In this document: positions 17,342 to 33,217 of the stretch, in pieces
Numbering within the stretch: the stretch's first letter is position 1
Layout: every line of letters starts with the position of its first letter
DNA from: a virus
Taxonomy: Duplodnaviria > Heunggongvirae > Uroviricota > Caudoviricetes
Length of the DNA: 50,143 bases
IMG/VR virus record: IMGVR_UViG_2703718810_000005
Location: 1-50,143 of that record
Reading direction: 5' to 3' (one strand)
Translations under genes and position numbers: made by a program
The notes under the pieces: model-generated
What the model saw: only the letters and a program-made list of their open reading frames with translations
What the model was told of the DNA's origin: nothing
Databases searched by the model: none

Positions 17342-17510
17342 ACACTCCCCCGGGAACCAGAAAGGATCTGAAAATGGCGTTTTCGGACAAAAACAGCCTT
17401 TGTCAGATCCTTTTATATTTTTAAAATTCTATTGATAATCAATCAGTTAAAAAGAAGAAGAACGGATCTGATTTTTCCCTAAAAATTTTCATAAATAGCG
17501 AAAACCCGCG

Positions 17511-18003: not shown

Positions 18004-18546
18004 TTAATTGATGAGTCCGGGGATTACGGTTTGCCCGTGCTGTTCAAGGCGTTCAATTCTAGCCAGCAGCTGTGGCTTCTTAATTTTGCCCCAGCGATTT
18101 AGCAGGCGACCTGACATGCTGGCAACATCCTTCTCTTTCATGTACTCCAGCATTACGGCATTTCTCTCTTCTTCAAATTGACGATGACCAACCTGAAGCA
18201 TGGCGTACATCCAGTTAAATGCGTTGATGTAAGCAATTTTGATACGCATTGCTTCTTTTTTGGTGTAGGACATAACCAAAAGCATCAACCCATCCTTGCG
18301 GAGACGGTAGAATTTTTGCGGCTTACCATTCTGTAACTCATTGTTTTTATAGCAAAGCTCAAAGTTGAGCTTTGTATCAAACTCAGGAGGGCAAGCTTCT
18401 ATGGTTCGTTCAATGTCACGAACTACGTTCTTCGGCAGCTTTCCAAATGCTTTTGCCACCATAAAAGAATCTGTAACCGGATCGTTGTTTGCCACAAAAA
18501 TCAGATCTCGAAAATCGATGCCGTTAACGATAGTTGGATAATTCAT
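18004..18546 (-). CDS. Rha-family phage regulatory protein
   Basis: N-terminal ...PVTDSFMVAKAFGKLPKNVVRDIERTIE... typical of Rha domain; start at MNYPTIV preceded by AAGGTG. Confidence 0.65.
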   Translation of the reverse strand: MNYPTIVNGIDFRDLIFVANNDPVTDSFMVAKAFGKLPKNVVRDIERTIEACPPEFDTKLNFELCYKNNELQNGKPQKFYRLRKDGLMLLVMSYTKKEAMRIKIAYINAFNWMYAMLQVGHRQFEEERNAVMLEYMKEKDVASMSGRLLNRWGKIKKPQLLARIERLEQHGQTVIPGLIN

Positions 18547-18693
18547 CAGTGCACACCTTTTAGTGATGAACCTTGTCACACAGGATTCCGGCCCACAGAA
18601 AGGCACCGATCACCAAACCGGCATCCTCAAGGGTCATCCTGAAAGGTTCTGTGTTCATAAGTCGCGCGTGTGAAGCGCGTTTACTGCGTACAT

Positions 18694-18716
18694 AAAAAAG
18701 CCCCGCATCGCGGGGC
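18694..18716 (-). terminator. Intrinsic terminator downstream of Rz/Rz1
   Basis: Minus strand gccccgc-gat-gcggggc followed by TTTTTT. Confidence 0.6.
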
Positions 18717-18748
18717 TCATTAAATGGACTTTGTGATTTGCAAAAAAA

Positions 18749-19192
18749 TTATTTCAGGCATTGCGTCCTGATGTATTCCTGCAGGTAGTTAACCTGCGCG
18801 GTTATCTTGTCGATTCCACTTCTGAGACGGTAATAATTGAGTTCAGCATCTGCTGTAAGTCCTGGGCTTTCTCCATCGCCCATGCTGCTGGCTCCGGTCG
18901 TTGACTTTGCACAGGTGGCGGCGACTTGCAGGCGCTTACGACCAGCAGAAACATCAGCACGGAGACTTTCGATAGTCGCATTAGCATCAGCAAGCTCCTT
19001 TGTGTATCTGGCGTCAAGTTCTGCTACATCACGTTGCCGCTTCTGCATATCATCGATGATGGATGTGGCTTTATCGCGCTGCTCTTTGTAGGCGATGGCG
19101 TTATCACGGTAATGATTCAGCCCCAGACTAAGCACACCACAGACCACCAGCAGAATAACGGTAAACGCGGAAATAATTCGGTTTATGCTCAC
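18749..19192 (-). CDS. Rz: Inner-membrane spanin Rz
   Basis: N-terminal TM segment then ...[14 protein letters not shown]... and coiled-coil, typical Rz; GTG start at 19192 inferred (six-frame ORF runs to 19285). Confidence 0.75.
18802..18987 (-). CDS. Rz1: Outer-membrane lipoprotein spanin Rz1 (embedded in Rz, +1 frame)
   Basis: Signal peptide with lipobox ...LLVVSAC followed by proline-rich mature region; fully inside Rz in another frame. Confidence 0.65.
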
Positions 19193-19337
19193 CCCACCAG
19201 CCCTGCCGAACTCAACGCCATCCAGGCTATGGAAAGAAAAAGAGCAACCATCATTAGCGAAAATGAAACGTCGACAATCACACAAATGGTCTTTGTCAGC
19301 GTTATGATTTTATCCGATATCATTAGCCACCTCTCCA

Positions 19338-19910
19338 TCAATCCGCCTTTGTTATTTTCCCTTTGCCTGTATCAGCCAGGACAAAATCAATCAGCAGATT
19401 CGCTTCGTTTATCAATGTGCGGATTTTTGATACATGCGCAGCTTTAACCTGTTTCCACTCATTCAGCCCGGTAGCAAACACACTGACAATGTTTTTATCC
19501 CGTTGCATGTCAGCGCAAGCCTGATTGAGTTCTTCCATCACGCTCATTTGACGAGGATTAACGACAAAACCCTTCGTCCAGTATTCATAGAGAACATCGT
19601 CGCACTCTTCCTGATACTGAATGACTCTGTCGCGGATTTCAGGTTTAACTTTATTTGGGTTGATGGTTTGCAGCCAACCTGCAAGTTTACGTAAAGCAAG
19701 ACAGATAACCAGACGACGCTGAGTATCACCGGGGAGCTGAATCATCATTTCGATGATGCAGGTCTTAAATCTCTCCATCAATTTGCGGTGTTGAGACTGC
19801 CAGGTCATACCCATTCCCTCAACGACAGGTTTCATGGGAACGTATGGTTCGCCGTTATGGTTAACCACATAAAGAGAATCGCCGTGAAACGGCACGGTCA
19901 TCATATTCAT
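19338..19910 (-). CDS. Putative phage antirepressor-like protein
   Basis: 190 aa, N-terminal ...VPFHGDSLYVVNHNGEPYVPMKPVVEGMGM... resembles antirepressor N-terminal DNA-binding domains; AAGGA RBS; sits between endolysin and Rz. Confidence 0.45.
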   Translation of the reverse strand: MNMMTVPFHGDSLYVVNHNGEPYVPMKPVVEGMGMTWQSQHRKLMERFKTCIIEMMIQLPGDTQRRLVICLALRKLAGWLQTINPNKVKPEIRDRVIQYQEECDDVLYEYWTKGFVVNPRQMSVMEELNQACADMQRDKNIVSVFATGLNEWKQVKAAHVSKIRTLINEANLLIDFVLADTGKGKITKAD

Positions 19911-20184
19911 CGGTTATTTCCTTTTAGTGATGAACCCTGCGCACAGGAATAACCAGCCCAAAGAGGGTTAACCAGACCACTGCCGGTTATCCACCAGGGC
20001 TCATCCTGAAAGGTTCTTTGGTTTATTTACGCTTGTGCGAAGCGCAGAAATGACAAAGGCACCATTACGGTGCCTCTGCGTGAAACAATGTTCCTGACTT
20101 TATTCACTTAGGTTTTGCCAGTTCGCAGGATTTCGTGTTATCCGCCCGCGTTGGCCAACATCATTTTTCAGCAAAATATTCTGC

Positions 20185-32069: not shown

Positions 32070-33217
32070 TTGCGCCCCCTTGCCTCTGAAGGGTTCAGCG
32101 ACAAATTTATGAGACTGGCCAGTAGCGCCGCGTCGTTGATGCGGTCATACAGACTTACAGCCAGCGGGGATTCGGCTTTTGCCAACATGGGATAAAGCTG
32201 CTGCAGCCAGACCTTGTGGATTACCGACAGGTGGGAGTAAAGCACGCTGGCGTTATCTGCGGCATCGCTCAGCGTGGATGGCTTTGAAAGCAGTTTTTCC
32301 ATCTGGTTAAAGGCATTTATGTATGCCTCTTTGAACCGGGCAGCACGTTTACCAGTGAAGCCCATGGCAAGAAACGCAAAACCGTCGCGGGTGATTTGGT
32401 AACAAGGGAGTTTGCGGCCTGATGCGTCGGTGTATTCACTTAACACAAAATTGTGTTCAGTAAATTCAGCGGAACATTCGAGGTTTCTAATTCTATCTAA
32501 AACCCGCTCATGCCGTTTAGTAAAGTAATTAGCTACTGCAAGAGATGTGGTGACAACGCGACCATTGATAATCGTGATTTCAGGGTGAGATTGGGTTGGG
32601 AGAGTAGTCATGGTGACAGCCCCTATGTTGAATTCAATGAACTCACCACCAAGGCTTTCCACGACCATATAGGTGGTGAGACGTACAGGGGTGGAAATAC
32701 CGGTCAACATAGAACCCGGCCCAACCGAAGTTGGCCCTGCACGCCCCACCATAATTTGGGCGTAACGATGCTCATGACACGAAAAAACCGCATGAGCGCG
32801 GTTGTGCTCTATATTGAATTTCGGGTTTCCACGCCCGGCCCCCGCTTTATAAGGTGCCTGAGCAGTGTAACGTCCCGGAATTGCAGAATCAATATGCTGG
32901 TGGTCCTTCACACTCAACAAAATCACGCCTGAATTTCCACAAAGGACTAAAGCACTCATGCGGGTAGTCTTTGCGAAGATAGATAACGCGCTGTGTTTCT
33001 GGCTCCCAACGAATAACATGAACATAAAGTCCTCTTCCGTCACGAAACCAGCGGTTAAGTTCCTGCACAACTCGCCCCCCACAGTCAGGTAAAGTTCTCT
33101 GTGGTTACTTACAGCCAGGTGATTTGGTAATCTGCATTCATGCCGTAACAACAGGTGTTCAGCGACGCTGACCACCAGCTGTTGCGACAAACGGTTATTT
33201 GCCGTTAAACTATTCAT
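32066..33217 (-). CDS. Rha-domain protein with ~200 aa N-terminal extension of unknown function
   Basis: 383 aa ORF; C-terminal half has Rha-like ...INGRVVTTSLAVANYFTKRHERVLDRIRNLE...; internal ATG at 32611 could be the true start of a shorter Rha protein. Confidence 0.5.
   Translation of the reverse strand: MNSLTANNRLSQQLVVSVAEHLLLRHECRLPNHLAVSNHRELYLTVGGELCRNLTAGFVTEEDFMFMLFVGSQKHSALSIFAKTTRMSALVLCGNSGVILLSVKDHQHIDSAIPGRYTAQAPYKAGAGRGNPKFNIEHNRAHAVFSCHEHRYAQIMVGRAGPTSVGPGSMLTGISTPVRLTTYMVVESLGGEFIEFNIGAVTMTTLPTQSHPEITIINGRVVTTSLAVANYFTKRHERVLDRIRNLECSAEFTEHNFVLSEYTDASGRKLPCYQITRDGFAFLAMGFTGKRAARFKEAYINAFNQMEKLLSKPSTLSDAADNASVLYSHLSVIHKVWLQQLYPMLAKAESPLAVSLYDRINDAALLASLINLSLNPSEARGRK

Follow-up and report, generated by a model that had tools for sequence, protein, structure and literature searches.

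A widespread phage leader RNA family with a predicted Shine-Dalgarno-sequestering hairpin and a covarying alternative fold

Introduction

Kinetic traps in co-transcriptional folding give the maturation-gene leader of phage MS2 and the hok mRNA a brief window for translation; translation of lambda cIII depends on which of two mRNA folds forms, through a switch that spans the start of the coding region; and in the lambda N leader an RNase III hairpin covers the Shine-Dalgarno (SD) sequence. In this study, we describe a leader that is present twice in a stretch of 50,143 nucleotides (nt) from a virus of the Caudoviricetes (IMG/VR record IMGVR_UViG_2703718810_000005, positions 1 to 50,143; hereafter the window), once upstream of a rha gene (copy A) and once upstream of an antirepressor-like (ant-like) gene (copy B). 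The leader is a new and widespread RNA family of a known general kind, namely an SD-sequestering leader with an alternative fold, and it has an unusually rich architecture. We favor, with moderate confidence, the reading that it serves as a bistable, two-state translational riboregulator of late-operon accessory genes.

Among described systems, translational ON riboswitches, such as the add adenine riboswitch with its three-way-junction aptamer set against an SD-sequestering helix, are alike in that a 5' junction and a loop-to-tail pseudoknot abut the SD-helix strand, and in that both alternative pairings are conserved by covariation. In the phage leader, the helices termed P1/P2 and Pa/Hx below are predicted to be incompatible and both covary, as in an expression platform that alternates with a sensor domain. 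By contrast, its gene context consists of phage regulators and nucleases, with no metabolic pathway and no implied ligand, and it yielded no Rfam riboswitch match. In the MS2 and hok leaders, too, a distant upstream complement covers the SD sequence at equilibrium and the nascent RNA first adopts a metastable 5' structure; a nascent 5' structure of this type, unlike the final fold, is predicted here. The phage leader differs from these in belonging to another sequence family, carried by double-stranded DNA temperate phages, and in having a pseudoknot (PK1) and conserved unpaired GGGCNG and CUG motifs that a simple trap would not need. Lambda cIII and the N leader resemble it as cases of lambdoid regulator genes whose translation is controlled by an mRNA fold or a leader hairpin, although neither shows sequence or structural homology to it. 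The C4/icd-ant system of P1 and P7 (RF01695) and P22 sar likewise control antirepressor-type genes at the RNA level, using short recognition helices that vary in a compensated fashion between related phages, but they rely on a separate or processed antisense RNA, whereas all partners in the leader lie in cis within 130 nt. Finally, in the rpoS leader, whose anti-SD hairpin is opened by DsrA, RprA and ArcZ, an upstream strand also pairs with the translation initiation region and activation consists of freeing it; the phage leader, unlike that of rpoS, contains the internal competitor Pa/Hx, and we found no trans activator for it. Full-text searches of open-access papers, sequence blocks included, returned no published description of the leader.

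Results

The first-pass annotation had claimed that a leader is duplicated upstream of the two regulator genes. Pairwise alignment bears this out, as the regions 5' of rha and of the ant-like gene align over approximately 140 nt on the minus strand, which is the coding strand and carries all leader features given below. The conserved blocks AGAACCTTTCAGGATGA and GGTTCATCACTAAAAGG are identical in both copies and coincide with repeats D1 and D3 of a repeat finder, and a further 5' block, GCGCTTC.CAC..GCG, is common to both. Each of the 16-17-nt blocks occurs exactly twice in the 50-kb window, against a chance expectation of 0.45 and 0.10 occurrences at up to three mismatches. The shared span of about 130 nt excludes a similarity confined to the bases next to the ribosome-binding site. 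The 5' boundary of the element is a small hairpin, H0 (18663-18679 and 20030-20045); counted from H0 to just beyond the SD sequence, copy A extends over 18551-18681 (covariance model 144 bits, E 2e-32), and copy B occupies 19915-20048 (98.5 bits, E 2.8e-21), each being also delimited by its alignment with the other. A strong intrinsic terminator (GAGCCCCGCGATGCGGGGC followed by T6; 18694-18718, terminator scan) separates Rz from leader A, and a predicted terminator-like hairpin (AGAGGCACCGTAATGGTGCCTTTGTCATTT; 20048-20077), followed by an interrupted T run, lies between endolysin and leader B. Beyond the window, a run of at least four Ts was present within 70 nt before H0 in 47 of 57 distinct copies, in most cases after a predicted GC-rich hairpin of unrelated sequence; read by eye, these upstream hairpins appear to be intrinsic terminators.

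The fold that we term OFF is a long irregular hairpin made of helices P1, P2 and P3d, in which the invariant AACCUUUCAGGAUGA(N)CCUUG pairs with CAAGG(N)UCAUCACUAAAAGG and the SD sequence lies within UCAUCACUAAAAGG. Energy minimization yields this hairpin for both window copies, with ACCUUU/AG/GAUGA paired to UCAUC/CU/AAAGGU and CCUUG to CAAGG. In copy A, the anti-SD strand, which is the P1 5' strand (ACCUUUCAGGAUGA, 18634-18647), pairs with the P1 3' strand (UCAUCACUAAAAGGU, 18555-18569), which contains the SD sequence AAAGG at 18556-18560; this helix is indicated by the minimum-energy fold, by the RNAalifold consensus and by compensation in divergent copies. The P2 3' strand of copy A, CAAGG (18571-18575), pairs with CCUUG (18628-18632). 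In copy B, the same anti-SD strand ACCUUUCAGGAUGA (20001-20014) pairs with 19920-19933 (UCAUCACUAAAAGG, SD included) in a minimum-energy fold of -43.1 kcal/mol (z = -3.2). P2 reads CCUUG:CAAGG in copy A versus CCCUG:CAGGG in copy B, and five of its seven pairs have changed on both sides across the family.

RNAalifold recovered the OFF hairpin from a structure-blind MAFFT alignment. When counted on 58 distinct sequences, in an alignment fitted to the OFF structure, 94.8% of cells were paired and 20 of 33 pairs had changed on both sides, with a covariation score of 0.170, compared with 0.080 in shuffled controls and no more than 0.039 when partners were slid. The viral-contig collection is uninformative on P1, since the retrieval pattern fixed the P1 5' strand; genome-derived copies and those of phi80 and P22 were used instead. 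Among these, GAUG:CAUC is replaced by GGUG:CACC in Pantoea and Erwinia, and AGGAUGA:UCAUCACU by AGAAAG:CUUUCU, AGAAAUGA:UCAUUUCU or GGUG:CACC. The longer unit AGGAUGA..CCUUG : CAAGG..UCAUCACU becomes AGAAAG-CGAGCCUG : CAGGCUCA-CUUUCU in a second Pantoea copy, with a similar form in phi80, while a second Edwardsiella copy has AGAAAUGAGCCUUG : CAAGGCUCAUUUCU and Photorhabdus has AAAUG..ACCCUUG : CAAGGGU..CAUUU. P1 is an imperfect helix over the SD sequence, as expected of an RNA thermometer, its irregularities being two mismatches (C.A and C.U) and one bulged A, and in near-consensus copies its 3' block varies chiefly at the predicted bulge and mismatch positions. The predicted stability of OFF, -33 to -47 kcal/mol, is high for an RNA thermometer. 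A distal P3 pairing, CCGG:CCGG, is 82% paired and is lost in haplotypes with GCCGU; it is a possible OFF-state alternative for the P3 5' strand.

In the other fold, ON, a Pa 5' strand of 5-7 nt located just 5' of the anti-SD strand pairs with a Pa 3' strand in the apical region of the OFF hairpin. In copy A, these strands are CACAGAA (18647-18653; also seen in the minimum-energy fold of the nascent transcript) and UUCUGUG (18594-18600), and both are identified by anchor-based haplotypes and covariation; in copy B, CCAAAGAA (20014-20021) pairs with CUCUUUGG (19958-19965). Pa was first counted by sequence anchors, without structural information, giving the strand combinations ACACAG/CTGTGG in 34 copies, ACTCAG/CTGAGG in 10, ACCAAG/CTTGGG in eight and CCAAAG/CTTTGG in six. 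Nine complementary versions were found in all, including CACAG:CUGUG, CUCAG:CUGAG, CCAAG:CUUGG and CCAAAG:CUUUGG, and divergent copies contributed CCCAG:CUGGG, CGAGAG:CUCUCG, CGCAGAG:CUCUGCG, CACCGA:UCGGUG and GAAAG:CUUUC. In an alignment not fitted to Pa, the helix was 96.5% paired and its central pair was distributed as AU20/CG19/UA15/GC2; across counts, 96.5-98.2% of cells were paired and three to four pairs had changed on both sides.

With Pa formed, ViennaRNA predicts a three-way junction of Pa, a hairpin Hx (UCAGG-AUGACC-CUUGA) and a local P3 hairpin (P3-local), in which Hx occupies part of the anti-SD strand and the SD-bearing 3' tail is free. P3-local of copy A, GCCGGU-UUGGUG-AUCGGU (18605-18622), carries changes on both sides in four of its six pairs; a GG:CC extension of this helix was dropped as poorly kept (81.7% paired). 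In 51 of 55 haplotypes, a transcript that stops after the Pa 3' strand has the Pa junction as its minimum-energy structure, and the complete leader is predicted to favor OFF over ON by 3-17 kcal/mol. The Pa helix crosses each of P1, P2 and P3d, its 5' strand being located next to the base of a rod of about 20 bp and its 3' strand beyond the top, 1-2 nt from P3-local. Given that the two Pa strands sit at opposite ends of this rod, Pa and P1/P2 should, on geometric grounds, be unable to coexist.

The pseudoknot PK1 was discovered by an all-against-all column scan and was counted on columns outside any model structure. In copy A, H0 has the form CGCGC-UUCACAC-GCGCG, with a stem that covaries (CG/UA), and its loop provides the PK1 5' strand UCACAC (18668-18673), which pairs with GUGUGA (18576-18581) directly 5' of the P2 3' strand. 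In copy B, H0 is GCGCUU-CGCAC-AAGCG and the loop CGCAC, read directly, pairs with GUGCG (19940-19944). The variable base of the loop UCNCAC covaries with that of GUGNGA; PK1 is 98.6% paired overall, its central pair is distributed as GC30/AU14/UA12, and the pairings comprise UCACAC:GUGUGA, UCUCAC:GUGAGA, UCGCAC:GUGCGA, CGCCC:GGGCG, UGCCC:GGGCA and, in P22, CCGCA:UGCGG. Within the element, no columns vary more than the centre pairs of Pa and PK1, which match the flanks in variability and yet are always complementary. PK1 is worth about -6 to -8 kcal/mol. We tentatively assign it to ON; if it forms in ON only, the two states come close in energy.

Collectively, 26 of the 45 proposed pairs have changed on both sides with pairing kept, which upholds the earlier suggestion of a structured 5' untranslated region. 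Some pairs are invariant G-U pairs, for example 83:93 and 57:68 in alignment A7, and near-consensus copies score 100-154 bits in the sense orientation versus 23-30 bits in antisense under the covariance model, indicating that the selected molecule is the mRNA-sense RNA. We have little doubt that both leaders are copies of a selected RNA structure. The possibility that the repeat is merely the 3' end of a duplicated coding sequence is excluded by frame-shifting indels, which give unrelated peptides across copies. At gathering thresholds over the whole window, Rfam 15 gave no match at either leader; at E <= 10 on 18400-20200, the sole matches were weak, had the upstream terminator hairpin as their centre (18639-18750) and touched at most the first ~43 nt of leader A.

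Other candidate identities were also considered. The C4 antisense RNA model (RF01695) matches 32669-32756 and not the leaders. A transcription attenuator was rejected on the grounds that AAAAGG...AUG, which lacks a U run, comes after the OFF hairpin and that terminators occur only upstream of the element. CsrA-site and IHF-site readings of the conserved blocks were unconvincing by eye.

The leader is widely distributed. Using blastn, the two leaders matched 305 and 315 phage records, including Stx1 and Stx2 phages, P22-like Salmonella phages and Klebsiella siphophages, and a scan of viral contigs yielded more than 60 distinct copies. Among the phages of enterohaemorrhagic E. coli (EHEC) that encode Stx, the O104:H4 outbreak phage P13374 carries it. 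The classical rha genes of phi80 (77.8 bits) and P22 (55.2 bits) are each preceded by a divergent member, and phi80 has another copy in front of PHI80_66. When one genome per species was scanned in a centre-anchored manner and the covariance model was then applied, 31 matches were obtained across Enterobacterales species genomes, with hits in Raoultella, Pantoea, Erwinia, Tatumella, Rosenbergiella, Serratia, Yersinia pestis, Edwardsiella, Photorhabdus, Citrobacter and Enterobacter. The leader is present in 809 of 5,426 complete E. coli genomes (~15%), at a median of two and a maximum of eight copies, and in these complete genomes no annotation underlies the matches. A protein-based search for distant Rha loci brought up no relatives of less than 90% identity.

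The genes behind the leader are diverse. Their products comprise six Pfam types, namely Phage_pRha, P22_AR_N, KilA-N (with P63C or ORF11CD3), AntA, ANT/KilAC and HNH_3 (with or without AP2), and the leader is found before ant between R and Rz, before a KilA-N gene amid a tail-gene cluster, and, in phage ST104, before a KilA-like gene after gene 15. The earlier notion of a portable cassette is thus supported, with at least six unrelated gene types behind the leader in different phage contexts. In phage phi24B, the gene behind the leader (L280:1632-2201) is annotated d_ant; it is probably a different gene from the ant whose deletion lowers pR' activity (Fogg et al. 2011), a paper that is not used as evidence here.

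A conserved SD sequence with a nearby ATG is present in almost all cassettes, and on this basis we place the start of the window rha at the ATG at 18544-18546 and not at the GTG at 18606 inside the leader. The annotated GTG starts of P22 rha (ORF201; L199:3576 versus 3645) and phi80 rha (L198:5740 versus 5776) fall inside the leader, and the longest rha open reading frame (ORF) of the window starts at 18606 (versus 18546), also within the leader RNA. The conserved SD sequence and ATG lie 12-23 codons downstream of those GTG starts, and the published P22 and phi80 rha starts are probably too far upstream.

One copy (L072:2517-2647) is a natural recombinant, with H0 and the Pa 5' strand of the window ant type and the remainder of the Stx1-phage ant type; its crossover lies inside the invariant GAACCTTTCAGGATGA block, and Pa retains one mismatch. 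In four others (L140:4826-4949, L021:2394-2517, L017:2342-2465 and L092:8680-8803), the leader is followed by only an 11-codon remnant ORF, and in L021 and L140 the PK1 loop is mutated (UCAUA versus GUGCGA). These look like decaying cassettes. A second cassette, intact but divergent, lies about 190 nt downstream of the remnant-ORF leaders. Tandem cassettes on one late transcript are common, being found in the window and in L127, L132, L140, L017, L021, L023 and L198, as well as in L065 and L121, where both copies are near-identical to those of the window. Pa differs between the two copies of every tandem pair inspected, and so, for the most part, does PK1. Such differences, and more generally the hypervariable but compensated centres of these two helices, may prevent cross-pairing between tandem copies that share a transcript; a rough estimate puts the chance of all pairs differing at ~7%, which is only suggestive.

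Discussion

Under the bistable model, the cassette would sit in the late operon behind a terminator, and its transcription presumably starts at the late promoter. The intrinsic terminator upstream suggests that the leader would be reached mainly by polymerase antiterminated by Q/gp23. ON would form first on the nascent RNA, its Pa junction, probably together with PK1, sequestering the anti-SD strand and leaving the SD sequence free. Translation of Rha, Ant, KilA-N or HNH proteins would start only while ON persists or is stabilized; otherwise the leader would relax to OFF, with the SD sequence buried and the gene silent. Candidates for what sets the lifetime of ON, and presumably for what flips the switch, are refolding kinetics, polymerase speed, temperature, RNase III, a host protein and a small ligand. 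The model draws on the sequence family and its distribution, the covariation of the named helices, and the predicted energies and folding order, from which we infer that the folds are alternatives rather than one compact fold.

Several observations weigh against this model. Support for Hx is weak, with one double change, and the folding of copy A alone is no better than that of shuffled sequence (z = -1.0). As most family members are very alike, the near-consensus set shows no variation at many P1 pairs, and the covariation of P1 comes from a few divergent lineages and a structure-fitted alignment. The mutual exclusivity of Pa and P1/P2 would follow from a geometric argument; only one or two nucleotides are shared. 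The predicted minimum-energy structure turns OFF some 10-15 nt before the SD sequence is transcribed, so that a purely kinetic window would need slow refolding. Furthermore, translation is the presumed output, judging only from the pairing of the SD sequence.

In a more ambitious version of the model, which we consider doubtful, the ON fold (the H0-loop pseudoknot, the Pa junction, the P3 hairpin and the GGGCNG and CUG motifs) would be a true sensor, a riboswitch-like or protein-binding aptamer of temperate enterobacterial phages that reads a host signal; a metabolite, an alarmone, an ion or a host protein could then decide the translation of late-operon anti-repressor, Rha, KilA-N and HNH genes. 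The junction with its pseudoknot, and the retention of GGGCNG and CUG in divergent copies, would be in keeping with an aptamer; most copies are too alike to tell selection apart from recent ancestry. A secondary source (PMC4936722) repeats the Pfam-style statement that IHF "regulates the rha gene" and that, in hosts defective for IHF, rha prevents the phage from growing, which we regard as a lead and not as evidence.

An alternative to switching is a static compact fold, in which Pa and PK1 act as tertiary pseudoknots that lock the SD-sequestering hairpin, making the leader a constitutive translational damper or insulator. The small overlap of Pa and P1 is in keeping with it, as it leaves no direct base competition, and OFF is always the predicted ground state; in addition, PK1 looks sterically compatible with OFF given a linker of at least 12 nt between H0 and P1. 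However, the Pa strands, at the base and beyond the top of the rod, should not be able to meet with P1/P2 formed, Hx uses the same nucleotides as P1/P2, and the P3 5' strand has two complementary partners, one local and one distal. We judge the static fold to be unlikely. Opening of the hairpin in trans, by an antisense RNA of the C4/icd-ant (P1) or sar/ant (P22) kind or by a host small RNA (sRNA) that pairs with the anti-SD block, as in the rpoS leader, is quite improbable in our estimation. Antirepressor genes are classically RNA-controlled, C4 and isrK-like RNAs are encoded in the same window, and 16 nt of the anti-SD block do not vary in most copies; on the other side, the complement of either conserved block is absent elsewhere in the 50-kb window at up to three mismatches, the C4 and isrK RNAs of the window show no complementarity to the blocks by eye, and the cis partners account for the invariant blocks.

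Two further explanations would dispense with a regulatory RNA altogether. A recombination linker for swapping accessory genes, with no RNA function, would fit the occurrence of one leader before many different genes, the L072 crossover inside an invariant block and the ORF11CD3 module found at the C terminus of many downstream proteins, which could provide the other joint. However, a joint requires identity and not the compensatory change recorded here, the G-U pairs are strand-specific, and recombination is probably a consequence of the conservation rather than its cause. We hold this explanation to be very improbable. The least probable explanation is that the element is a promoter/operator in DNA, the other option raised by the first-pass annotation, or a small leader ORF. 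Although morons often carry their own promoter, no sigma-70-like site was found on the coding strand of either leader, the terminator usually abuts the element and leaves no room for a promoter, and both the compensatory variation and the low antisense scores speak against a DNA site. An ATG in CAGGATGA does open a short ORF in many copies, but its frame is broken by 1-nt indels, the resulting peptides of 5-30 residues are unrelated, and the ATG is missing in 12 of 58 distinct copies.

The leader is present in the well-studied phages P22 and phi80 and in the Stx phages of EHEC, yet it is unannotated there and lacks an Rfam family, and an E. coli genome that carries it usually has several copies. 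The antirepressor, Rha and KilA-N genes that it is proposed to gate are able to affect the induction of prophages and, in Stx phages, the release of toxin, and the model would offer a concrete RNA mechanism for the 30-year-old observation of host (IHF)-dependent rha expression. The leader also marks a hot spot of accessory-gene exchange among phages, and with two covariation-supported folds and a pseudoknot it represents a good model for natural bistable RNAs.

Genomic context

The window is a lambdoid, Stx-phage-like prophage with its late genes on the minus strand, its nearest phages being Shigella phage POCJ13 and the Stx2a phages of the P13374 group. The late genes include, on this strand, a holin (21816-22106), an endolysin (Phage_lysozyme, 20185-20718), the ant-like gene (P22_AR_N and ORF11CD3, 19338-19910), an Rz family gene (18749-19213) and rha (Phage_pRha and ORF11CD3, 18004-18546), all but the holin assigned by Pfam, and terminase comes after rha. 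As had been noted from the sequence, the ant-like gene separates endolysin from Rz. The accompanying statement that the two regulator proteins differ is correct for the N-terminal DNA-binding domain and does not extend to the C-terminal ORF11CD3 domain, which is common to both.

Holin and endolysin (S/R) are themselves parted by an insertion of two ORFs without a Pfam match, at 21144-21815 (minus strand, 223 aa) and 20844-21164 (plus strand, 106 aa). Just upstream of the small-terminase gene, a 23-nt inverted repeat (17361-17413; 83% complementary, 7-nt spacer) is neighbored by GGATCTGA repeats, and the only strong promoter-like sites sit beside these repeats, on the plus strand. The C4 antisense RNA (32669-32756, minus strand, 82.4 bits) adjoins an isrK-like RNA (32781-32857, minus strand, 57.7 bits), and the pair looks like an RNA-controlled module of the P1/P7 immI-like or Gifsy-1 IsrK-like kind. 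A full-length match to the STnc100 sRNA family (194 bits) was also detected at 24885-25098 on the minus strand.

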